DNA of 32,000 nucleotides from Raphidiopsis brookii D9 (GCA_000175855.1 ACYB01000007.1:60127-92126), one strand, 5' to 3'. Counted from the stretch's first letter, positions 15,773 to 31,688 are shown. Numbers and translations: made by a program. Notes: generated by a model from the sequence alone, not told the origin.

Positions 15773-16303
15773 ATGAATTCCAACCTAGAAAATTTAGAGT
15801 TTATTGACTATATTGACCACAGTGGTGAATTACCCATACAACTTGAAGGTAAGATAGGTGTTTATGCAATTTTTAATCAGGAAAAAATTTTGCAATTCAT
15901 TGGTTATTCCCGTGATGTTTATCTCAGTTGTAAGCAACATTTAGTTCGTCAACCCCATAAATGTTATTGGTTAAAAGTCCACACTATTGAACGTCCTGAC
16001 CGAAAAATTCTGTCGGAGATTGAAAATAGCTGGATTGCCCAAAATGGTAGTCTACCACCGGGCAATGGTGAGAATAAGCAAATATGGACTAATGCCATTA
16101 ATGTTCAAGAGTTAATGACTGATACAGAAAAAGAGGATTATCAAAATCCATTAATTGATGATTTAGCTAAGACTAAAGTGTTAAAGAATGTATCACGTCG
16201 ATTAGAGTCAGAAATATTAGAAGTGTTGAGAGCAAGGGGGTTGAAAACTCAAATTCGCTTTAACCCGAAGTTGAAAGAGGAGGGTTTACTGGATTTAAAA
16301 TAA
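15773..16303 (+). CDS. GIY-YIG-like domain protein (176 aa)
   Basis: The N-terminal region GVYAIFNQEKILQFIGYSRDV resembles the GIY...YIG nuclease motif pair. The rest is unassigned. Confidence 0.5.
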   Translation: MNSNLENLEFIDYIDHSGELPIQLEGKIGVYAIFNQEKILQFIGYSRDVYLSCKQHLVRQPHKCYWLKVHTIERPDRKILSEIENSWIAQNGSLPPGNGENKQIWTNAINVQELMTDTEKEDYQNPLIDDLAKTKVLKNVSRRLESEILEVLRARGLKTQIRFNPKLKEEGLLDLK

Positions 16304-19323: not shown

Positions 19324-19393
19324 CTTTAGCCAGAACGTGATAGACAGGGGAGCCAGGGAATTAATTCCCTGGTTCAAAGCTAAAGTTGGTTTT
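19324..19393 (+). terminator. Long hairpin or possible sodB terminator centred on a perfect 20-bp palindrome
   Basis: The outer stem CTTTAGC (19324-19330) / GCTAAAG (19379-19385) encloses the perfect palindrome CCAGGGAATTAATTCCCTGG (19353-19372). TTGGTTTT follows. Confidence 0.35.
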
Positions 19394-19511
19394 CAACCGA
19401 CTAGTTTTGTTGGTGGGGGATTGTGGGTTAACCTGCATTATTCATGAAGCTAAAAATAGGCAAAACAAAACCTAACATTTATCCCCCAATTTGTGAGCGA
19501 TCGCCTAATTA

Positions 19512-19949
19512 TTAACTTGCATCTTCTAAGTATTGTAGTCCCCACTGATATAAAGAACGCATTAATAAATTGTTGAAATTGGGGGGAGTGCCAATTTCTC
19601 TTAGTGTCTGCATCATTAAGTTTTTAATGATTGTTGATGTTGTTGGTATTTTAACTCCATCAAAGTTGTTATTAGCCCAAAGATAACCGACCTGTTTGGC
19701 ATCTATTGATTCACCATCATGAATAATTTTATTGCGTTTTTTTCTAATATCACTCATTAAGTTTGACCATTTTTTATCTTCTTTAAATCTACTATATGAA
19801 CACCACCCTTGCATCAATTCTGCCAGTGTTGGTTCATCTTTATCTTTGGGTATCCAACCTTTGGTATACCATTTCTTATTAATAGATTCCAGATATAATA
19901 ATTGTTCTAAAATCTGTACAAACTGAATGAATGCTATGGTATAATTTCC
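19512..19949 (-). CDS. csx1: HEPN RNase domain; C-terminal part of a Csx1/Csm6-like CARF-HEPN protein, out of frame with the upstream CARF ORF
   Basis: Contains the R-x4-H HEPN catalytic motif (RKKRNKIIHDG). The frame is open from 19949, with no ATG until 19814, and reads GNYTIAFIQFVQILEQLLYLESINKKW..., a typical first HEPN helix. It overlaps the CARF ORF stop. Confidence 0.7.
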   Translation of the reverse strand, partial: GNYTIAFIQFVQILEQLLYLESINKKWYTKGWIPKDKDEPTLAELMQGWCSYSRFKEDKKWSNLMSDIRKKRNKIIHDGESIDAKQVGYLWANNNFDGVKIPTTSTIIKNLMMQTLREIGTPPNFNNLLMRSLYQWGLQYLEDAS

Positions 19950-21037
19950 CTATTTAATGTTAGTTCTAAGATTAAAATAGACTCCCATAAATTAGTAATT
20001 TTGTCATTCTGTAATCTTTGTAATTGGGTTTTCCAGGTTTCAACCTGTTCTGCATCAACTAGTTTTGATATATCATTAGAACTCACCCAATCTTTGAGAT
20101 TTCGATAAAATTCTTTGCTATATTCCCAGTTACTATATTTCGCTAGAAAACCAGCTAATTTATGTAATACTGGATGACGATGTTGATGGACTTTTAGCCA
20201 AATTTGTGCTTCTGAAAAATCCCCTCTTTGCCAAGACGATTTTATCTTGACTTTTTCTAACGCCCAAAAATATTCGCCCATCGTAATCAGTTGAAAATTT
20301 TGGGAATGATTAGCAGTAACTAAACCATTTTCTAAAGTAGTAAAAAATTCCTTTGGTTCATCGGGAGTAGCATTAAATACTTGATATTGACGTACTAAAG
20401 CGGCCGCACAAATTTCTACATTAGAAGCAATTACGGGAGTACATCCTTTAGTTTGAATCCAGAGAACAAACTCTTGATTTTTGTTAGCACTGATAGCTTC
20501 TTTTAAAACCAGTTGTTCTAATTCTTCTCGAATTTCATCACTATTACCAGCATTAATTTTTGGGGCGTGAACATCAACTCTAATATCAGGAAATAAACTT
20601 TTAATTTTTCCTTTCATTAATTCTGCTAACCATAAGGTATCTAATCGGCGAAAGTTCCAAGTAATAGTTTCTGGTTGGTCTGTTCCCCATAGAATAATAT
20701 GTTTTAAGCCTTGTTTTACTCCTCCTTCAATGACAGTTTTATCTAGTAATAATTCAACATTACTAAAATCACCGCCTAACCATTCTTGACAGTAATCATA
20801 ATATCTTTGACCTAAATCTCGACCACTCCAGGGATAGGTTTTACCATCTTGGTCTTGATGTTTACCCCGTTCTATTCCTATTTGTTGATAGAGTTCGTTG
20901 ATATGTGGAGGATAGCTAATATTACCATCTGCACCAAAGGAACGAATAATACCGTCTTTGCAACGCCAACCTATTTGTCGAGTTCCTACGGTGATGATAA
21001 GGGTGCTAACTTTATCTGTATTATTGGTTATTTTCAT
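19934..21037 (-). CDS. csx1: CARF-domain part of a Csx1/Csm6-like type III ancillary protein
   Basis: The N-terminal beta-strand/Gly motif LIITVGTRQ and the later WIQTKGCTP are CARF-like. Its ATG overlaps the stop of the upstream cmr6-cmr1 gene (ATGA, 21034-21037), so it belongs to the same operon. Confidence 0.7.
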   Translation of the reverse strand: MKITNNTDKVSTLIITVGTRQIGWRCKDGIIRSFGADGNISYPPHINELYQQIGIERGKHQDQDGKTYPWSGRDLGQRYYDYCQEWLGGDFSNVELLLDKTVIEGGVKQGLKHIILWGTDQPETITWNFRRLDTLWLAELMKGKIKSLFPDIRVDVHAPKINAGNSDEIREELEQLVLKEAISANKNQEFVLWIQTKGCTPVIASNVEICAAALVRQYQVFNATPDEPKEFFTTLENGLVTANHSQNFQLITMGEYFWALEKVKIKSSWQRGDFSEAQIWLKVHQHRHPVLHKLAGFLAKYSNWEYSKEFYRNLKDWVSSNDISKLVDAEQVETWKTQLQRLQNDKITNLWESILILELTLNREIIP

Positions 21038-22917
21038 AGAGGAAAAATTTGCAGTTTATTTTGTAATGTTTCTAAATACCTCTTGCGGGGATTTTCAGTT
21101 GCACCAAAGACTGTCACTACTTGGTAATCACCTAAATTTGTAATCCATACTGGGGAAGGAATAACTCTATTACCTTGAGTTCTACCACAAAGATTACCGT
21201 CATATTTATTATTAAATTTTAGCTGATCACTATGTAAAACTGATAGGGCATAAGATTTACCGAATTTTTCATCTCCAGAACATACAAAGATGCGACAATT
21301 TGTGTCTATTGCTTCTGTCCATTGGTCATTTCTAACTATTCCACAAATTCTTAATTGTCGAGAATTAAAATTAACACCTAACGTTTGTAATGCTTCATAA
21401 AAATTCCTGATTTTCGTTCTGAATAATTCTTGAAATTGTCTAGTATTATCTGGTAAGTTCCAAAAATTATCATCACTTTCAGCAATTAAATTACAGCCAC
21501 GATCCCAAGGAGGACGGGGAGAATTACGATCTCGTCGAGAATATAATGGTCTTCTTGCACCTTGACCTATACCACCCAAATGAAACATTAACCAGGTGAG
21601 ATTTTTGATTAATTTCTCTAAGTTCTCTTTTTGAGACTGAGGAATTTCCGGTGAATAGTTTAATGTTAGGATACCTTCTTGCTCACCACATTCATCATTA
21701 TTTCTTTGGGCTTCTTTTTGATTAATCTTTCCTTCTAAAACTCTGACCATTAACCAGCCATATTGTTTACTAGGGTTAATACCACCAAATATTTGATTTT
21801 CCCATTCTTGAACTTGACCAGTTTCTAAAACCCCCAATGCAAAACTTCTGAACCAATAGCGTAACATTGATTTAAAGGCAACTGGGCGAACTTCAGGAGT
21901 ATTTATTGTATCGGGTCTTAAACTTCCATTATTATTTCTTTTGTAAGGTTGGTTAACATTTCTAAACCTCTGTCTACCATGAATTAACTGACCTTCTATA
22001 ATAAATTTAACTCTAAAAAATTCATTGTTATTTTCAAGTTTCCCTGCGGGATTTAATTGACCATAACCAGTGTTTACTTGAGAACCAACACCAGCTTGTA
22101 ACCCTTTTATTAACCACTGTTTGACCTGTTCTAATATTTCCTTATCCTGACAATTACTAGCTAACCTTAACCCTATGGTAAACATGGGTTTTTCTAAACT
22201 TAAAAATGGGTTAGGATTGGGGCTATATTTAGGTGTATTATTATCCCACTGCCAAATATTATTAGCCATATCAACAGCTAATACATTTTGTTTTTGGTTT
22301 GGTAAAGGATAAGCGTCTAAAAATACAACTTTACCCGCTTGATCTTTTTTATTATTAGTTTCTACAGAACCAAAATAGAAGGCAATTTGTTTCTCCGCTT
22401 CTTGCCATTCAATGTTGTTTTTAGCCATGATTTCCCGGATGGCTTGGGTTCTGGCTACACCCCGTAAGCTGCTAGAGGGAATATAAGGAATACCTAAAGC
22501 ATCAAAAGCGGGTAATAAAATACTTTCTGGTCCTCTATGTCCACCTACTCTAATTCTCCAAGGACATTGAACTTTAAAACTTTTTTGGGCTATTAATTCA
22601 GTACGTTCTGTTAGTTGTTGTAATCGCTGGTAATATTTTGACCCCTGTTCGGCCATTTGTAATATTTGTACTTTAGTGGGGTCCTTATAATCATGATTGG
22701 GCGATGCAGTTCGCATCCAACGCAAATACTCTACAAAACTAGCATCTGTATGTGGTTTAGGTTCATTGTCTGCATCTAACCAGGGAGACGGAATAGCAGG
22801 TTGATTACCGCCGTTACCACCGTTATTATTTCCTCCATTGCCACGATTACCGCCACCACGACCACCTCTATTATCATTAGCTGGAGGATTATTTATATTA
22901 GGTCTTTCAAATACCAT
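21034..22917 (-). CDS. cmr6: RAMP fusion protein: Cmr6-like N-terminal half plus Cmr1-like C-terminal half
   Basis: First half: WRIRVGGHRGPESILLPAFDALGIPYIPSSSLRGVAR, GKVVFLDAYP, VGSQVNTGYGQL (Cmr6 pattern). Second half: PEVRPVAFKSMLRYWFRSF, ENQIFGG, FHLGGIGQGARRP (Cmr1 pattern). The ATG at 22917 is preceded by AAGGAG. An alternative ATG at 22938 overlaps the end of cmr5. Confidence 0.75.
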   Translation of the reverse strand: MVFERPNINNPPANDNRGGRGGGNRGNGGNNNGGNGGNQPAIPSPWLDADNEPKPHTDASFVEYLRWMRTASPNHDYKDPTKVQILQMAEQGSKYYQRLQQLTERTELIAQKSFKVQCPWRIRVGGHRGPESILLPAFDALGIPYIPSSSLRGVARTQAIREIMAKNNIEWQEAEKQIAFYFGSVETNNKKDQAGKVVFLDAYPLPNQKQNVLAVDMANNIWQWDNNTPKYSPNPNPFLSLEKPMFTIGLRLASNCQDKEILEQVKQWLIKGLQAGVGSQVNTGYGQLNPAGKLENNNEFFRVKFIIEGQLIHGRQRFRNVNQPYKRNNNGSLRPDTINTPEVRPVAFKSMLRYWFRSFALGVLETGQVQEWENQIFGGINPSKQYGWLMVRVLEGKINQKEAQRNNDECGEQEGILTLNYSPEIPQSQKENLEKLIKNLTWLMFHLGGIGQGARRPLYSRRDRNSPRPPWDRGCNLIAESDDNFWNLPDNTRQFQELFRTKIRNFYEALQTLGVNFNSRQLRICGIVRNDQWTEAIDTNCRIFVCSGDEKFGKSYALSVLHSDQLKFNNKYDGNLCGRTQGNRVIPSPVWITNLGDYQVVTVFGATENPRKRYLETLQNKLQIFPL

Positions 22918-22921
22918 AATC

Positions 22922-23317
22922 TCATTCTCCTTTAACATCTGCGTAAATTGCTGTTGCCCAAAAACTAAATTCCTGCGCTAAAGCTAATCCCAAACCTGTT
23001 AAACCTAAATAATCATCTGTACTCACATTCTTTAAAGTTTCTAAACCCTGTTGTCCAGATAAATTCTGTCTTCCTGAAATAGTTTGTAAACATTCAAAGA
23101 ATTTTTGTACTACTTGTTTTTTGCCCATCATTCCATCAGGTAATGCCATTTCTTCAGCTTTTAATCGCATTATTCCCCAAGTGGAAAGATAGGTATATAG
23201 TTCCACTGCTTGACTTTTTTGTTGTTTTAAACGAGTGTCATCTTGATTGGGTAAATTACGCAAAGTATTCAAAGCATCATAAATTGGTGTAGCAATTGTT
23301 CTAGGGTCAAATGTCAT
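22922..23317 (-). CDS. cmr5: Small-subunit (Cas11/Cmr5-like) protein
   Basis: A 131-aa, apparently all-helical ORF in the canonical slot between cmr4 and cmr6. The call rests mainly on size and position. Confidence 0.55.
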   Translation of the reverse strand: MTFDPRTIATPIYDALNTLRNLPNQDDTRLKQQKSQAVELYTYLSTWGIMRLKAEEMALPDGMMGKKQVVQKFFECLQTISGRQNLSGQQGLETLKNVSTDDYLGLTGLGLALAQEFSFWATAIYADVKGE

Positions 23318-23319
23318 AA

Positions 23320-24116
23320 TTAATCCTTATTTTGTATCCATTGTTGAACAAAACCGCGTCCTAAACTTTCTTGTCCTCCTATTTGTAATATTTCCTTATC
23401 TGCTAACAAATTTTTAAAATCTTCTTGATAAGATTGTTCAGATTCTTTATTAGCTTGTGATGTGATTCCCCAAGGTAAATACATTAATGTATCCGGTGGA
23501 ATTGCTTCTTCATAACGGAAACCACCATCTACTGATTTATGGTCATCAAGTTTAATTTTTACTTGTCTCCATAAACTCATTTGAATTAATGTGGCACAAT
23601 GTTTATCTGGTAATACTAATAACCGATTTAGAGAAACAGTGCTATCATGTTTTGGTACAAATTGTTGTAAATTATTTCCTGGTTGTAATTGTTTTGCTCT
23701 AATAATTGCATCTTTTAGATAAACCGCAGCATTATTATTAAAGTTACAACTATATTCTGAAGGTATTGGTGTTGGTGATTCATCACCTTGTAAACGTTGC
23801 CAACGTTGTAATAAAAGAGGACAACTTACCCAAACTACACTATGACTTAATGACGGTACTGGCAACCATAATATAGAAGCATCCCCAATCCAAATATTAC
23901 CCTGTTTTAATTGTTGAGCATCTTTTAAGTCGTTGCCAAATAGTTCATCTTTTAGGTTTTGATCTGTAGCTAATGAACGCAATTTACCTCGCACTGTACT
24001 AGACGGAACATAGGGTAAATTAGTATGTGATTCACGGGCAATTCCTAATAAGTTACCCTCTTGAGTTGTGCCACCTGTATGTAATGGTGAAAGTAGATAT
24101 AAATAGATGTATTCCA

Positions 24117-24117
<1 letters not shown>
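23320..24117 (-). CDS. cmr4: Cmr4 (Cas7-family RAMP backbone subunit)
   Basis: LSPLHTGGTTQEGNLLGIARESHTNLPYVPSSTVRGKLRS and the C-terminal QIGGQESLGRGFV match the Cmr4 RAMP pattern. The start overlaps the cmr3 stop (TAATG). Confidence 0.85.
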
Positions 24118-25610
<1,493 letters not shown>

Positions 25611-25618
<8 letters not shown>

Positions 25619-28244
25619 TTACCATTCCGTAAATTACCCGCACTTGTACAGCGTCTTTTTTCTTCTCCTCACCATCTTTAAAATAAACATGATCTTTGGC
25701 TTTTTCTTCCGCTTCCCAGAGACTTTCTAAAGCTATTGCTAAGGGTACGGAATGATGGGCAATTACCATACCAAAGCTAATAGTGGCCTCACTTCCCATT
25801 GTAAATAATGGGCGGTCAACTAAACCAACTTGCAGAAGATTATCTTTTAAATATTTCCAATAATCCCCATTATTACTAAACTCTCCATGAGGGTCTTTTG
25901 CACCTTTAAAACATTGGCGGATATCCCATAACCAATTATCCCATTCCCAGAGATTAGTATAGGCTAAAACGTCATCACCACCACCATAAATTAATCTACC
26001 TGCATAACGGTTTTGGGTTAAATAGGGAACTAATTGATTAGAAAAATCTAATAATGCCCTACTTAATGCACTGTGGGTACTTGGTCCCATTCTTTTGGTG
26101 AGATCTAAAAACTTTGGAAAGTTAGTTAATGTAACTTTTTCCTCAAAACCATCGGGAACATATTCACGGTAGGGTTTCATTTTTGAACCCTTTAACCATT
26201 CACTCATACCATCACCATCACCTGCAGCTAACACATACCAATCCGATGGGTTGTTTTGAGGATAATGTTCACTGAGAATCTGATTAATCTCTTTGGTATA
26301 TTCTGCTTTTAATTCCTGACTGTTAGGTAAATCTTCTAAAATCCAACCTGCATTAAGTAAGCGGGGATGGTATTTTTTAGGATTTGGTTTTTTATCAATC
26401 CAAGGAATACCCCATTTACCTCTCATTTCTGTGAGTGTATTTTCAAGTTTAGGGTACTTATCAACTATTGCTTGACAAGCTTTTTCAAAATTTAGTTTAT
26501 GTCGTGTATCTCCAGCATTAACTTTCAAATATCCTGCTACACCTGATGTTAAATCTGGATAGGATGCTGCAATATCTTTTTCTTCGATTCCCAATAAGTT
26601 AGGTAAAATTTTGTGTAAACCACGTTTTAACACTTCCGTAGCATTTAGTTGTTCTGTTCCATCAAAAAAACCTGCATCATGGTTTCCCCATAATTCCTTG
26701 GTATCACCTTCTGTCATCCAGTCTTTTTTATCCTTACCAGGATTTACCACCGGACCAATACCAGAAATTGTCGAACGTGGTCCAAAAGCTGTGGGGAGTT
26801 CCCAATTTCTAGCGTTTTTAACTGATGCTAAACTAGCGCGGGTAGCATCGAAAATGTAAGCCCACCATGAACCAACATTAGCACTAAATCCTCTTTTGTA
26901 TATCTTTTGACGAACTTCATAGGATTCTTGCAATAAATCTTTTTCTTCTTCCTTAAACAGCCGATTTTTATTGTTAACTAGATTGTACGTTTCATTTTGT
27001 GTTGTTGACCAGCTTTCAAATTCTTGATTCTTATTTTTGTCAGCGGAAAATTTAAACTCTGTTCCTGATTTACCTATGGGTAATGCTGTCCAATAGGTTT
27101 GCCATTGGGATTTTAACCAACCTTGCCAACTATTGTGATCTGGTTTTAATTGTCTCATCCAATGACGTTCATTTTGTAATTCATTTAATACTAAATCACC
27201 AATTGTTAACCATTCTTCCAATAGCGCTTGCTGGGCTGTTTGCATGGCTGCTTGTACCTTGCCTTCTGGTAAGACCAATACTATCACATTAGGAAACCCA
27301 GCGGTTAATAATGATTTTGGTGATGGTTGATTTATATATGGCGAAAAATCTCGATATTGTTGTATTAACCAATAATCAATTAACGGCTGTTCATATAAAC
27401 TGGGATACAGTAAAGTATCAGGTCCATATTGATTAGCAAGTTTCCAACAAACTTTAGCTGATAGATAATGTAATAACCAAGAACCTGCCCAAAAATCCCG
27501 CATTTTGCGACTAGATTTAATTAATTCCTGTACAGGACTAAAACTAAATACCGCCAGATAAGGATGAGAAACTTTTTTTCCTCTTGGCCAGTTTTTAACT
27601 TCATCTAATGTTAAATCATATCCGGCAAAACCACCAGCTAAGGCTGATGTCATACTAACATGACTCCAAATAGAAGCATCGGGAATCCTGGTTTCTGCTG
27701 GCATTAACATTAAAGAACTATCTTCAAAGATATCACAGGTGACTTTAGGTAAACAACGCCATAACCACCAATATAATTCTTTAATTTTAGGAATATTGTT
27801 TTCAATATCTTCTTGGAATTTTTGTGGCGCTGTCTCTAATATTTCCAACAATCTTTTTTCTTTTTCAAATAAAAAATCTGCACGGCTACCAGTAACTAAT
27901 TGCTGATGAAAATTAACTTTAAAATCTTGTTTAGACCCGGACAATAAATGTCTAATTTCTAATCCTTTGTTAGGGTTATTATCTTCTGCATAGTTGATAG
28001 ATTCTGTAGTCCCACCGATAGCTGATCTATCACTCGCTGAAGCAACATGATCTGCAAATAATATGTTTGCTAATGCTTTACCACGTGAATCTTCGGGGGT
28101 TTTACCTGTCTCAACCCAAGGTTTCATAACTTCTAATTGTTTATAGAAGCTATTTTTACCCCGTCCGCTATTGTTATGTAATGCCTTTAATATGGGGTCA
28201 TGTAGTAAACCCCAAATCTTAGCCCGCCAATATTCTTCCGACAT
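25611..28244 (-). CDS. cas10: Cas10/Cmr2 large subunit (HD nuclease plus cyclase/palm domains)
   Basis: N-terminal HD motifs (KIWGLLHDP, FADHVASASDR), palm-1 AAGDGDGMSEWL and the cyclase motif RLIYGGGDDVLAY. Confidence 0.9.
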
Positions 28245-28274
28245 CAGTGATTCCCCTATCTAGCTGATGTTTGT

Positions 28275-28304
28275 ATTGTAATGGCGGGATTTAGTATTTG
28301 TCTA
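28275..28304 (-). promoter_or_regulatory. Weak candidate promoter for the cmr operon
   Basis: On the minus strand: TAGACA (28299-28304), an 18-nt spacer, then TACAAT (28275-28280). It is about 30 nt upstream of the cas10 ATG in an AT-rich tract. Confidence 0.25.
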
Positions 28305-28741
28305 TTAATTGACAATATTTAATTTTCAATATAAATCAGCTTGAAATCTTTTGTTTATAAGCCTTTGGGCTGTTTGTTTGGTTTTATCAAGAATATTTTT
28401 TATTTTTTGACATTAATTGCAAATTGTGTATTCTTATCCCGATTTGTTCATACCCAGATTTTATTAGCTTAACCGACAGAAGACAGAAACCCCACATCTC
28501 ACTCTTAGGAGCGTGGGATGAATGACGCGTGAGTTGACGACAGTTCCCTGACTGATGTGCGTAGCACCAAGGAAGGGAACGGAAAGGCTTTGCGTCTATA
28601 TTTTGTCGTTAAAACTAGATGTACGGTCACTGACCGACCTTCCCTTCGAGACAAAATCATTCAAAACCAGCAACTAAAAACCCTGAAACCCTTCATTTTC
28701 CCTGACCTTCGGCCAACGCCACACTTTAGTATCAGAAATCA

Positions 28742-29023
28742 CTAAACAATAATCGAACCCGGAGGTTCAATCACAGGAACACCCATCCCCCAAATTTCCA
28801 CCTGGGTAAGAGTATGTCTCGATAAAGGATAAAACCTAACATTATCCTCCTCCAACTTGACAATTTTCCTTAACCGACAACGTAAATCATTGTACTTTTT
28901 CGTATTTAACTGACATTCAAACACAGAATACTGTACGCGCTGACCATATCCTTCTAATAAATCAGCTATTTTTTTACGTCTTTTATCATTAGGAATATCG
29001 TAGGAAATCACATACAAAAACAT
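28742..29023 (-). CDS. cas2: Cas2 endoribonuclease (adaptation)
   Basis: MFLYVISYDIPNDKRRKKIADLLEGYGQRVQYSVFEC is the Cas2 ferredoxin-fold N-terminal signature. The ATG at 29023 is preferred to the TTG at 29047. Confidence 0.85.
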   Translation of the reverse strand: MFLYVISYDIPNDKRRKKIADLLEGYGQRVQYSVFECQLNTKKYNDLRCRLRKIVKLEEDNVRFYPLSRHTLTQVEIWGMGVPVIEPPGSIIV

Positions 29024-29043
29024 AACACAAATATCAGAAAAAA

Positions 29044-29706
29044 TCAATCAATTTGATATGGTTTATAATGATGACTAGGATTATAAACAAACTGTTTATA
29101 ATTCCTAACTTGTTGAGTTAATAAATCCCACTTTGGTTGTTTTCCATCATTAGTTTGTATTTCTTCCGTCATCCTTTGTAAAAACCCCCGTAAAAACTTT
29201 TTCCTACCTGAATCGTTTAAATAACACCCCCCATTTTTAAATTGAAAATCTCCTTTAACATCCATAATATTCCGATTAATTAACCACATTACTAACGAGT
29301 CTACCAACGGTGCGCGGAACTCCTCAATTAAATCAGAAGCTAAGGCCGCATGACCATCATTTGCCTGGTGTAAACAAGCATAATAGGGGTCTAGTCCCTG
29401 AACTTCAATTAATGCTAAAAGATGATTCCAAAGCACTTGATACCCAAAACTTAACATCGCATTTACCGGGTTTCCCGGTGGACGACGACTACGACCAGAA
29501 AACACAAAATCAGGGTTAGTCAAACATTCACTAAAAACAGAGAAATATTGAGCAGCACCAGTACCTTCAAAACCCATTAACCGTTCCCATGTATCAGCCT
29601 GTACCGCTTGTTCTGCTAAATAATCTAAACTTTGTAATGTCCTTTCTAACGTCTCAGACTCTCTTTTTTTTCTTTGTCTCCTTAATAAAATTCTACTATT
29701 TTCAAC
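29044..29706 (-). CDS. cas1: Cas1 integrase, C-terminal two thirds (out of frame with the N-terminal part)
   Basis: The frame is open from 29706 and reads VENSRILLRRQRKKRESETLERTLQSLDYLAEQAVQADTWERLMGFEGTGAAQYF.., NAMLSFGYQVLWN, ALASDLIEEFRAPLVDSLV (Cas1 catalytic-core pattern). Confidence 0.85.
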   Translation of the reverse strand, partial: VENSRILLRRQRKKRESETLERTLQSLDYLAEQAVQADTWERLMGFEGTGAAQYFSVFSECLTNPDFVFSGRSRRPPGNPVNAMLSFGYQVLWNHLLALIEVQGLDPYYACLHQANDGHAALASDLIEEFRAPLVDSLVMWLINRNIMDVKGDFQFKNGGCYLNDSGRKKFLRGFLQRMTEEIQTNDGKQPKWDLLTQQVRNYKQFVYNPSHHYKPYQID

Positions 29707-30032
29707 TTACCTTTGACAATTGCTCTAGCTGTAATTAACCTGTCTACAGGGGATAATTCTTGTTGATAACGTGATAACTGTCTATAACCCCTAGAAATTG
29801 GTAAAATTCTGCCGTAGCAGTAACCCATCCTTGATAAATAGGCAATGGGAATATCACGCCATAAACAAGCACGGATGACTTGGGTGGTTATTTGCGATCG
29901 CCCAAAAATTAAAATCTGTTCCAACAAAGGTAACTGTACTTCAACATGTACAGTGTCACCCTGTTTAACAATCAAAGTTTCCTTTTGTAAACATACATAA
30001 CAATTTTGCTCAGAAATATAAAGGGTCTGCAT
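29682..30032 (-). CDS. cas1: Cas1 integrase, N-terminal third
   Basis: MQTLYISEQNCYVCLQKETLIVKQGD.. is a typical Cas1 N-terminal beta-domain. The frame ends ..AIVKGKLK then IVEFY*, while the expected continuation NSRILL.. is in the adjacent frame. The break is at T4 29699-29702. Confidence 0.85.
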   Translation of the reverse strand: MQTLYISEQNCYVCLQKETLIVKQGDTVHVEVQLPLLEQILIFGRSQITTQVIRACLWRDIPIAYLSRMGYCYGRILPISRGYRQLSRYQQELSPVDRLITARAIVKGKLKIVEFY

Positions 30033-30304
30033 TAACGCCACCAACGTTGTAAATTGGATTTTCGGGAACGCTGCTCACTTTCAGTACCAGATGTTAACTC
30101 TGCATTTTGCTCTAGTTCTAACCACAACACAATTCTATCCGCTATACTGCAAACTAAATAAGTAGAAAAAGTTACCAACAAAGTATTAATAATCACAGCA
30201 GCTAACCCCAAGGGTGCAATGAGCAGAATCACCAAAGTAATACCACCATTAACAGTAGAGACAGAAACATTTCTGACAGTAGCAAAACGTCGAGAAATAT
30301 ACAT
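30032..30304 (-). CDS. Small predicted two-pass membrane protein, translationally coupled to cas1
   Basis: 90 aa with an ATG start and two hydrophobic stretches (GGITLVILLIAPLGLAAVII; TLLVTFSTYLVCSIADRIVLWL). Its stop overlaps the cas1 ATG (TAATG at 30030-30034). I recognise no family. Confidence 0.45.
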   Translation of the reverse strand: MYISRRFATVRNVSVSTVNGGITLVILLIAPLGLAAVIINTLLVTFSTYLVCSIADRIVLWLELEQNAELTSGTESEQRSRKSNLQRWWR

Positions 30305-30470
30305 AATGTGAAAAAACTTGACATAAAAGTGATGGCCTTGACTAGCATAACTTTGGAGTTACCGAAAAACCAGGAAAAGAAGATAAACTAAATTATTACT
30401 ATAATTGTTTAAAAACCTATACTAGTAGTACTTACAGCCAAATTCTGAAAACTGGCTAAATATTTTCTTT

Positions 30471-31688
30471 TTGTACATTTCATTAACAAAATTATTCTTA
30501 CAATGCCAAAAAAACCTAAGTCATCCTTATACAGAACCTTTAGCATTTGAACGTTTATTACTGTTAATTGCTACCCTACTCAAATATCCGGGTGTGGGGA
30601 GTCCAGATTTCCTAGAATTTAGTAATAATAAAAATCATGACGCAATTGGTGTCGTTAAAATATATCTACAACAACTAGCCAAGAATTTAAATATAAAATT
30701 ACCAGATAATTATCCCGCAGTGGACACATTACGTAAAGATTTAAAAACCCTTAGACGCTACGGTATCCTTGATCAAAGAATGTATCGTTGGGGATATTAT
30801 TTAGGCACTGGTGCTTTGTCTATTACTGAACTTAAAGTAGCATTTAACACTTTAGCTTCCCAAGCACAATATCAAGGCGATGCCCAAACAAGACGCATTT
30901 ATGAAACTTTAAGTAAAAGACTGCGGAGTTTGGATAGGGAACTCAAGGGAGAATTTTTTTATCCTATCCGTCAACATCTGAATCGTGCCATAATTCACAC
31001 AGACCCGGAAGAAATGGCAGCAAAAGGAGAAAACAGAGATACGTTATTTCATCAATTACCATTATTAGAACAGGCCATAAGTCAAGGACAAGCCATCGAA
31101 ATTTCTCGTAGTAAAAGTTTCTATGGTTCTGGTAATATTGGTAGATTTCAGGTATTTCCATTACAATTAATTTACCATGATATTGCCTGGTATTTACTGT
31201 ATGAGCTCTGTGAAGGTGGACATTTAGTAATGGGGCGTATTAATCGCTTTAATAGTTATTGTTCCCTAGTTAAAATACCAGCACGGGGAATAGAAAAACA
31301 AAGAGAAAGTTTAGCTAAAGCCTATCAACTATTGGAAAATGGTTGGGGTTTAAATTTAGGTGAACCTGAACCACAACAGTTAGAATTAGCGGGAAATCTT
31401 AAATTTATTGAAGTTGAGGTACGTTTTTATCCTCCCATATCCAACTTTATTGTAGAAGGAGAGCGTCGTCATCCCAATCAAAAAATTGTAGTCGGAGAAC
31501 CCGATAAAAACACTGGGGAATACAAATTTATAGAATATTCTATAAAATTACCGCCACGTTCTTTAAATGAATTTATACAATGGGTTTATCGTTATATGGA
31601 TAAGGCACAAATATTGTCACCACCAGAATTAATAAAACAACATCATCAGCTTGCACAAAATTTATATAATCGTTATCAGAAGGTTTAA
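30471..31688 (+). CDS. WYL-domain transcriptional regulator (wHTH-WYL-C-terminal extension), CRISPR-associated by position
   Basis: N-terminal HTH-like region (LAFERLLLLIATLL...LRKDLKTLRRYGIL) and a WYL domain (GQAIEISR...RFQVFPLQLIYHDIAWYLLYE). It diverges from the cas1 operon. The start is uncertain: TTG at 30471, or ATG at 30503 if the A7 run 30508-30514 is one base too long. Confidence 0.8.
   Translation: MYISLTKLFLQCQKNLSHPYTEPLAFERLLLLIATLLKYPGVGSPDFLEFSNNKNHDAIGVVKIYLQQLAKNLNIKLPDNYPAVDTLRKDLKTLRRYGILDQRMYRWGYYLGTGALSITELKVAFNTLASQAQYQGDAQTRRIYETLSKRLRSLDRELKGEFFYPIRQHLNRAIIHTDPEEMAAKGENRDTLFHQLPLLEQAISQGQAIEISRSKSFYGSGNIGRFQVFPLQLIYHDIAWYLLYELCEGGHLVMGRINRFNSYCSLVKIPARGIEKQRESLAKAYQLLENGWGLNLGEPEPQQLELAGNLKFIEVEVRFYPPISNFIVEGERRHPNQKIVVGEPDKNTGEYKFIEYSIKLPPRSLNEFIQWVYRYMDKAQILSPPELIKQHHQLAQNLYNRYQKV

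Follow-up and report, generated by a model that had tools for sequence, protein, structure and literature searches.

Introduction

Subtype III-Bv is typified by the CRISPR3 system on the Synechocystis plasmid pSYSA, which lacks Cas6 and in which RNase E, assisted by RNase J, cleaves the repeats to leave 5' handles of 13-14 nucleotides (nt) (PMC12464536, PMC3575380). The structural proteins of CRISPR3 have been named Cmr1, Cmr5, Cmr4, Cmr3 and Cmr2, and Sll7086, the one called Cmr5, co-fractionates with the complex (PMC8136920). Here we analyse a locus of this kind in Raphidiopsis brookii D9, which lies within 32,000 nt of sequence (GCA_000175855.1, ACYB01000007.1:60127-92126) that we refer to as the window and in which all positions are counted from the first letter. 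A preliminary description of this DNA, made from the sequence alone, had placed a Cmr-type CRISPR-Cas effector and adaptation locus at 19512-31688, with neither cas6 nor an array to be seen, and had guessed that it might be a variant like that of Synechocystis. Our reading, to which we give a probability of about 0.8, is that it is a cas6-less III-Bv locus whose array was lost at a site that now holds an IS200/IS605 remnant, and that the frameshifts in three of its genes are most likely assembly errors.

Results

Placement of the locus in subtype III-Bv

On the minus strand the genes of the locus run csx18-cas1-cas2, then cas10/cmr2-cmr3-cmr4-cmr5-cmr6::cmr1, the last of these a fused RAMP gene, and then a gene for a Csm6-like CARF-HEPN protein, with a WYL regulator gene pointing away from csx18. 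When pSYSA was searched by tblastn, all five effector genes found matches in the same order at 49-63% identity, with values of about 53-54% for Cas10 (against Sll7090, over the full length), 49% for Cmr3, 63% for Cmr4, 60% for Cmr5 (whose pSYSA counterpart has 131 residues) and 49% for the fusion; Csx18, Cas1 and Cas2 are 45%, 60% and 71% identical, respectively. The fusion of the window and the 649-residue RAMP protein of pSYSA also show the same pattern of profile matches, to Cmr6 at about residues 150-297 and to Cmr1 at about 344-460. Judged by these sequence comparisons, the cluster is a collinear orthologue of pSYSA CRISPR3 and belongs to subtype III-Bv, so that the guess made in the preliminary description holds (orthologues at 45-71% identity) and the locus is a new example of an already known system, not a new system.

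Relatives were collected in a scan of one genome per species, which gave 63 related loci, nearly all of them labelled as cyanobacterial. Most keep the gene order of the window, often with the WYL and CARF-HEPN genes, and a fused RAMP gene, csx18 and often WYL and CARF-HEPN genes are the standard layout of III-Bv, seen in more than 60 cyanobacterial loci. Because this layout is common to cyanobacterial III-Bv loci it is no oddity in the window, contrary to the preliminary description, in which the arrangement had been called other than textbook III-B. As had also been noted there, neither an array nor a cas6-like gene is in view: no Cas6 match was found in the window, where all open reading frames (ORFs) of the locus and the main ORFs elsewhere were assigned to other families or stayed unassigned.

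Effector, adaptation and regulator proteins

Profile hidden Markov models back every gene call of the preliminary description, in identity, strand and order. Cas10/Cmr2 matches TIGR02577 (E 6e-49, 167 bits against a cut-off of 79), Cmr2_N (E 7e-36), PADLOC Cas10b (E 5e-284) and Cmr2 chains in the PDB, and the HD (LLHDP, SASDR) and GGDD motifs that it was said to retain are indeed present and are conserved in 18 relatives, including Synechocystis Sll7090. Cmr3 was identified by PF09700 (E 6e-71, 240 bits) and Cmr4 by TIGR02580 (E 1e-37, 130 bits against a cut-off of 87). Cmr5 was recognised along its entire length by the PADLOC Cmr5 profile (CAS-III-B effector_SS, E 2e-67); it found no match in Pfam, in NCBIfam or, by sequence, in the PDB, and a search of the PDB with a Cmr5 profile was likewise without a meaningful match. 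Within the fusion, the Cmr6 part is recognised by TIGR01898 at residues 147-295 (E 7e-18, 65 bits against a cut-off of 51) and by PADLOC Cmr6 at residues 90-299 (E 4e-38), and the Cmr1 part by TIGR01894 at residues 344-461 (E 1e-3) and PADLOC Cmr1 at residues 346-463 (E 9e-8). For the RAMPs and Cas10 of the window, Csm models score far lower than Cmr models and stay below their cut-offs. The Cmr models pass their curated cut-offs and outscore Csm/III-A and III-D models alike, and the effector is of subtype III-B (Cmr), not of the Csm or III-D families.

The fusion carries near its N-terminus, at residues 20-47 (window about 22800-22880), a low-complexity tract rich in Gly, Asn and Arg, NDNRGGRGGGNRGNGGNNNGGNGGN; in several relatives the tblastn matches to the fusion start only past this tract, at about residue 45.

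In the adaptation module, cas2 matches TIGR01573 (E 7e-19) and PF09827 (E 2e-24), its likely start being an ATG that gives a 93-residue product, and cas1 matches PF01867, with model positions 1-110 on an N-terminal piece (E 9e-22) and 152-281 on a C-terminal piece (E 4e-51). A small membrane ORF had been listed ahead of cas1-cas2 as one of the unusual features of the locus. The gene is there, directly upstream of cas1, and it is no oddity, since it encodes the known Cas-associated protein Csx18 (NF040558 CAS_Csx18, E 5e-29, 100 bits against a cut-off of 50; PADLOC Csx18, E 4e-35), under which name its orthologues are annotated in pSYSA and in the Anabaena cylindrica plasmid pANACY.03. The overlapping stop and start codons reported on the minus strand, TAATG at 25269-25273 and 24115-24119 and ATGA at 21034-21037, are found exactly there, and the csx18 stop overlaps the cas1 start in a fourth overlap, a TAATG at 30030-34.

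The regulator matches PADLOC WYL/Csx1 (E 1e-69), PADLOC WYL (E 1e-18) and Pfam WCX (E 3e-5), and in A. cylindrica the orthologue carries the annotation 'WYL domain-containing protein'. The first of these matches is to a PADLOC profile described as 'CARF+WYL C' and covers the full length of the protein, of which Pfam sees only the C-terminal WCX. Because this profile matches over the full length, there are hints that the regulator may itself sense a nucleotide signal.

Loss of the array from the cas2-cas10 spacer

Among the 26 related loci that have cas2 upstream, 19 carry the array between cas2 and cas10, and in most relatives it lies directly upstream of cas10. The repeat of the relatives, GTCCCCACTCGCTGGGGACATTAATTGAATGGAAAC, and that of pSYSA CRISPR3, GTCTCCACTCGTAGGAGAAATTAATTGATTGGAAAC, are both 36 nt long and combine a hairpin on the 5' side with a 3' half rich in A and U, and on their sequences the relatives' repeat and the RNase E-processed CRISPR3 repeat plainly belong to one family. 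The window as a whole contains no repeat array, and no copy of the relatives' repeat with three or fewer mismatches. The repeat that goes with III-Bv (36 nt, with a hairpin at the 5' side and a single-stranded, AU-rich 3' half that ends in GGAAAC) is seen in the arrays of the relatives and is missing from the window because the array has been lost, not because the repeat is of a different type. A collapsed array that had left one degenerate repeat in the spacer was considered and rejected, the Smith-Waterman scores being no better than those of shuffled sequences.

Inspection of the spacer revealed three segments. The region next to cas10 is 90% identical to the sequence upstream of cas10 in one relative (L004) and 82% identical to that in another (L008). 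At the other end, next to cas2, 66 nt of a CRISPR leader are left, and in local alignment to the leader of a further relative (L003) they reach a score of 46, where 200 shuffles gave no more than 32. Between them, in the place taken by the distal leader and the array in the relatives, lies a remnant of about 170 bp of an IS200/IS605 element. One part of it (28579-28660) corresponds to the first ~27 codons of tnpA and the other (28492-28551) to the right end of the element, and by blastn the two match the copy on plasmid pCC7120alpha of Nostoc PCC 7120 with E values of 4e-10 and 2e-14, respectively, the latter at 85% identity. The TnpA of that copy finds the remnant by tblastn at E 3e-8, and the match to NCBIfam transpos_IS200 is marginal. 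The distal leader and the whole array have been lost, and what is left of an insertion sequence stands in their place. The absence of the array is a structural feature of the sequence, because a collapsed repeat assembly would leave at least one repeat.

Upstream of cas10 the promoter scan found a promoter-like site, TAGACA-18-TACAAT, at 28304-28275. Two related palindromes, TTGTCAATTAATAGACAA and TTTGCAATTAATGTCAAA, are present in the same region at 28298-28315 and 28406-28423 and are also visible in L004 and L008; from their sequence they are candidate operators, perhaps for the WYL regulator.

The closest relative by Cas10 (L001, Dolichospermum planctonicum NIES-80, 86% identical) is in the opposite state of partial loss. 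Three array segments built of the relatives' repeat, with unrelated ORFs between them, lie upstream of its cas10 (L001 1-7400), and it has no match to csx18-cas1-cas2 or to the WYL gene.

Frameshifts and assembly quality

The preliminary description implied that the genes are intact; three of them are frameshifted. The cas10 frame stops at 25611 and picks up in another frame at 25522, which leaves pieces at 25611-28244 and 25271-25522, cas1 is split into 29682-30044 and 29044-29577, and the CARF and HEPN parts are two ORFs at 19934-21037 and 19512-19817. In the relatives the pieces of each of these genes are in one frame. As references we used L064 (99.3% identical from rpoB to sodB), L069 (98.6% identical in the CARF-HEPN gene) and L070 and L071 (94% identical in cas10), all of which carry longer homopolymer runs; a second metagenome scan returned only 94%-identical cas10 fragments, with all homopolymers intact. 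The cas10 gene has two 1-nt homopolymer deletions, at 25610 and 25625 (versus L064 and L070), the CARF-HEPN gene has one in an A run of the minus strand at about 19944 (versus L069), and cas1 has one in an A run at about 29699. With one base restored in each gene, and two in cas10, open frames of 991 (cas10), 508 (CARF-HEPN) and 333 (cas1) residues are obtained.

Seven such 1-nt deletions and no insertions were counted in all (9726, 13491, 16404, 19944, 25610, 25625 and 29699). They include a shortening of G6 to G5 at codon 27 of rpoC1, another of G6 to G5 in the middle of rpoC2 and one intergenic site, and their rate is 0.31 per kb from rpoB to sodB versus 0.33 per kb in the cas locus. Since deletions of this kind are also found in rpoC1 and rpoC2, both of them essential, we judge the breaks in cas10, cas1 and the CARF-HEPN gene to be probably errors of the assembly and not pseudogenisation. 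A real split of the RNA polymerase beta-prime subunit at the G6 run was also considered, and was set aside as far less likely than an assembly error, rpoC1 being hit in the same manner.

The CARF-HEPN protein

The protein encoded at the end of the operon is not recognised by Pfam and NCBIfam models, including their Csm6 models, and sequence and profile searches of the PDB gave only a marginal match to Csm6' (E 0.13). A homologue search found 184 relatives at E <= 0.001, and the 120 of them that were listed are proteins of about 500 residues that are unannotated and, wherever the source names an organism, cyanobacterial. The PADLOC profile CARF1--CARF_HEPN matches at E 3e-248, as measured on an intact homologue of 98% identity (P0001), and an R-N-x3-H motif (R435-N436-x3-H440) is invariant in an alignment of 77 homologues. 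An AlphaFold (AF2) model built on this alignment has a predicted local distance difference test score (pLDDT) of 90. Foldseek aligned the model with Thermus thermophilus and Enterococcus italicus Csm6 at E 3e-8 to 1e-7 and, with Streptococcus thermophilus Csm6 included, at E 3e-8 to 1e-5, with a probability of 1.0 and over the whole length (about 430-550 aligned columns). The label CARF/HEPN in the preliminary description is borne out by these results: the 508-residue protein is Csm6-like CARF-HEPN, with a fold that is predicted from the model. Because of the Csm6 fold and the conserved GGDD motif of Cas10, it is presumably an RNase activated by cyclic oligoadenylate (cOA), by analogy with Csm6.

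In six relatives (L002, L005, L007, L012, L016 and L019, at about 17.2-18.8 kb in each) there are two different CARF-HEPN genes in tandem, one for a Csm6 of about 490 residues with a weak TIGR02672 match and one for a 510-residue protein of the window type. The loci with the tandem pair also carry a divergent set of Cmr4, Cmr5 and Cmr6.

Cassette exchange in a closely related strain

The reference that is 99.3% identical from rpoB to sodB (L064) has, at this site, an effector operon whose rear half differs from that of the window (L064 10704-16602 against window 19380-23973). Between the two, Cmr4 is 38%, Cmr5 32% and the Cmr6/1 fusion 29% identical, whereas Cmr3 is 97.6% identical and the C-terminus of Cas10 100%, which places the breakpoint of the exchange near the cmr3/cmr4 junction. 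L064 encodes a different Csm6 of 493 residues and keeps a 33-codon stub of the window-type CARF gene.

Genomic context and features of the locus

From the left, the ORF list and profile scans place hslO, a usp gene, hisD, rpsT, tatD, rpoB, rpoC1, rpoC2, htpG and sodB in the window, and the cas cluster adjoins sodB as an island of low GC content (33-37%, against 40-47% for the flanking genes). The window is a segment of a cyanobacterial chromosome and this III-Bv copy is chromosomal. A scan of the whole window with Rfam at gathering thresholds gave no match. Between rpoC2 and htpG there is an ORF of 176 residues (15773-16303) with a weak GIY-YIG match (E 0.002), which is 99.4% conserved in L064. 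The features of the cas locus are given in Table 1.

Table 1. Features of the III-Bv locus of R. brookii D9, in window positions (aa, amino acids).
Feature	Position	Strand	Size and evidence
CARF1-HEPN accessory RNase gene, Csm6-like (predicted)	19512..21037	-	508 aa with one base restored; PADLOC, AF2/Foldseek
Cmr6::Cmr1 fused RAMP	21034..22938	-	634 aa; Synechocystis Sll7085 orthologue; TIGR01898, TIGR01894, PADLOC
Cmr5 small subunit	22922..23317	-	131 aa; PADLOC Cmr5 profile
Cmr4, Cas7 backbone subunit	23320..24117	-	265 aa; TIGR02580
Cmr3	24117..25271	-	384 aa; PF09700
Cas10/Cmr2	25271..28244	-	991 aa with two bases restored; TIGR02577, Cmr2_N, PADLOC Cas10b
cas2-cas10 spacer	28245-28741		497 bp
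Conserved region upstream of cas10	28245..28467	-	identity to L004, L008
Internally deleted IS200/IS605 remnant	28492..28660	-	blastn/tblastn to Nostoc PCC 7120 pCC7120alpha copy
Residual cas2-proximal CRISPR leader	28660..28725	-	local alignment to L003 leader
cas2	28742..29047	-	TIGR01573, PF09827
cas1	29044..30032	-	about 329 aa with one base restored; PF01867
csx18	30032..30304	-	90 aa; NF040558, PADLOC Csx18
WYL-family regulator	30471..31688	+	PADLOC WYL/Csx1, Pfam WCX

Discussion

By analogy with characterised systems, Cas10, Cmr3, Cmr4, Cmr5 and Cmr6::Cmr1 would assemble on a CRISPR RNA (crRNA), the Cmr4 subunits would cleave complementary transcripts, and target binding would turn on the HD nuclease and the GGDD cyclase of Cas10, the cOA product of which would activate the RNase specified by the last gene of the operon, the Csm6-like CARF-HEPN protein. 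Spacers would be acquired by Csx18-Cas1-Cas2 and transcription would be controlled by the WYL protein. The guides would be matured by host RNase E, with RNase J, at the repeat with its 5' hairpin and AU tail, and no Cas6 would be needed, as has been shown for the Synechocystis orthologue. With the array gone there is no local source of guides, and hence the effector would be either idle or using arrays of the same family elsewhere in the genome. We regard it as unlikely that the array-less module is still active in the latter way, on crRNAs from such arrays processed by the housekeeping RNases E and J. As guides of this type would be processed by housekeeping RNases and not by a cognate Cas6, an effector cassette could swap or lose its own array and keep its function, and an active array-less module would fit the cassette exchange between the 99.3%-identical strains at this site. 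If an array-less effector does work with distant arrays, effector and array could come apart more freely in type III systems that depend on host RNases than in those that depend on Cas6.

Several observations weigh against the reading of a III-Bv locus with a lost array and probably erroneous frameshifts. The loss of an array with a transposon remnant in its place, together with frameshifts in three of ten cas genes, is also compatible with a locus that is truly decaying, in which the IS200/IS605 event removed the array, selection was relaxed and real frameshifts then arose in cas10, in cas1 and in the gene for the CARF-HEPN protein, the system being a dead III-Bv. The site turns over fast, because the 99.3%-identical strain has swapped the rear half of the operon and has lost the window-type CARF gene, and the deletions do not follow the classic pattern of long-homopolymer errors: two of three G6 runs are shortened and none of eight A6/A7 runs. 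Since the long A runs are untouched, real slippage mutations at a few sites are possible. Decay of the locus as a whole, however, is at odds with the deletions of this kind in rpoC1 and rpoC2, which are as frequent per kb, with the frames being free of stops and of further lesions after single bases have been put back, and with the full length of Cmr3, Cmr4, Cmr5, Cmr6::Cmr1, Csx18, Cas2 and the WYL protein; moreover, the two deletions in cas10 are only 15 nt apart, which suggests a poor local consensus. We consider a dead locus unlikely. Further points against the preferred reading are that a metagenome scan for an independent copy of the leader/IS junction gave no match and no copy of the exact cas2-cas10 junction, that the best Cas2 match among 5.8 billion proteins is only 92% identical, and that the entire mechanism proposed for this organism rests on homology.

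It is also possible that an array lies farther to the right or elsewhere in the genome, given that the window continues for only 312 nt past the WYL gene, and the preliminary description had suggested one just past the right edge. Taken further, this would make the locus an ordinary III-B system with both cas6 and an array to the right of the WYL gene, and a few distant relatives (L029, L037 and L039) do have arrays downstream of the operon or past an inverted cas1-cas2. The close relatives with sequence past the WYL gene, on the other hand, have no repeats of the CRISPR3 family there and carry their arrays between cas2 and cas10, and in the window it is this very site that holds the IS200/IS605 remnant, with the leader stub persisting at the canonical position. 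Clustering of all other ORFs in the 10-kb flanks of the 63 related loci gave no conserved cas6-like gene cluster in any flank, and experiments have shown that the orthologous system of Synechocystis does not depend on cas6 (PMC3575380, PMC12464536). We consider an ordinary III-B locus with its cas6 and array just out of view to be very improbable, and retain the reading of a cas6-less III-Bv locus that has lost its array.

For annotation, it follows that a Cmr locus in Nostocales with neither cas6 nor array is to be filed as III-Bv, and that broken cas genes need a check of assembly quality before they are labelled as pseudogenes; since the deletions point to an assembly with indel errors, genes of this genome should be called pseudogenes only with support at the level of reads. 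Biologically, the locus offers a dated snapshot of CRISPR locus turnover, with an IS200/IS605 element exactly at the site of the former array.

Comparison with known systems

Canonical III-B systems such as the Cmr complexes of Pyrococcus furiosus and T. thermophilus share with the locus Cas10/Cmr2, Cmr3, Cmr4, Cmr5 and the Cmr6 and Cmr1 RAMPs and, presumably, transcript-guided RNA cleavage, an HD nuclease and cOA signalling. They differ in having separate Cmr1 and Cmr6, in depending on Cas6 and in the 8-nt 5' tag of their crRNAs, whereas III-Bv has a fused Cmr6-Cmr1 and no Cas6, with tags of 13-14 nt generated by RNase E in Synechocystis. The accessory protein shares with the Csm6 proteins of T. 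thermophilus and E. italicus and the Csm6' of S. thermophilus a predicted fold of CARF, helical and HEPN parts along the whole chain as well as the R-N-x3-H motif, but it is only 10-16% identical to them in sequence and falls in a cyanobacterial CARF1 family with a PADLOC profile of its own.

Synteny with other Nostocales is complete in the III-B locus on plasmid pANACY.03 of A. cylindrica PCC 7122 (ANACY_RS29235-29290), which matches the window gene for gene at 73-89% identity in the order WYL, csx18, cas1, cas2, cas10, cmr3, cmr4, a Cmr5 of 132 residues, a cmr6 fusion of 653 residues and a CARF-HEPN protein of 510 residues. It differs from the window in that an array of about 34 repeats separates its cas2 from its cas10, in its continuous cas10, cas1 and CARF-HEPN genes and in being plasmid-borne.

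The pSYSA CRISPR3 system (sll7085-sll7090 with csx18-cas1-cas2) has the same genes in the same order, including a Cmr6/Cmr1 fusion of about 640 residues, and neither locus has cas6; the HD and GGDD motifs are conserved, and its repeat is of the family found in the relatives of the window. It is plasmid-borne, whereas the copy in R. brookii is chromosomal, and it has an array, of which the window has none. Its adaptation module diverges from the effector operon, while the two are co-oriented in the window, and a small antisense 'peptidase' gene lies between its cmr3 and cmr4. Finally, the pSYSA operon has no adjacent WYL or Csm6-like CARF-HEPN genes, both of which are present in the window.

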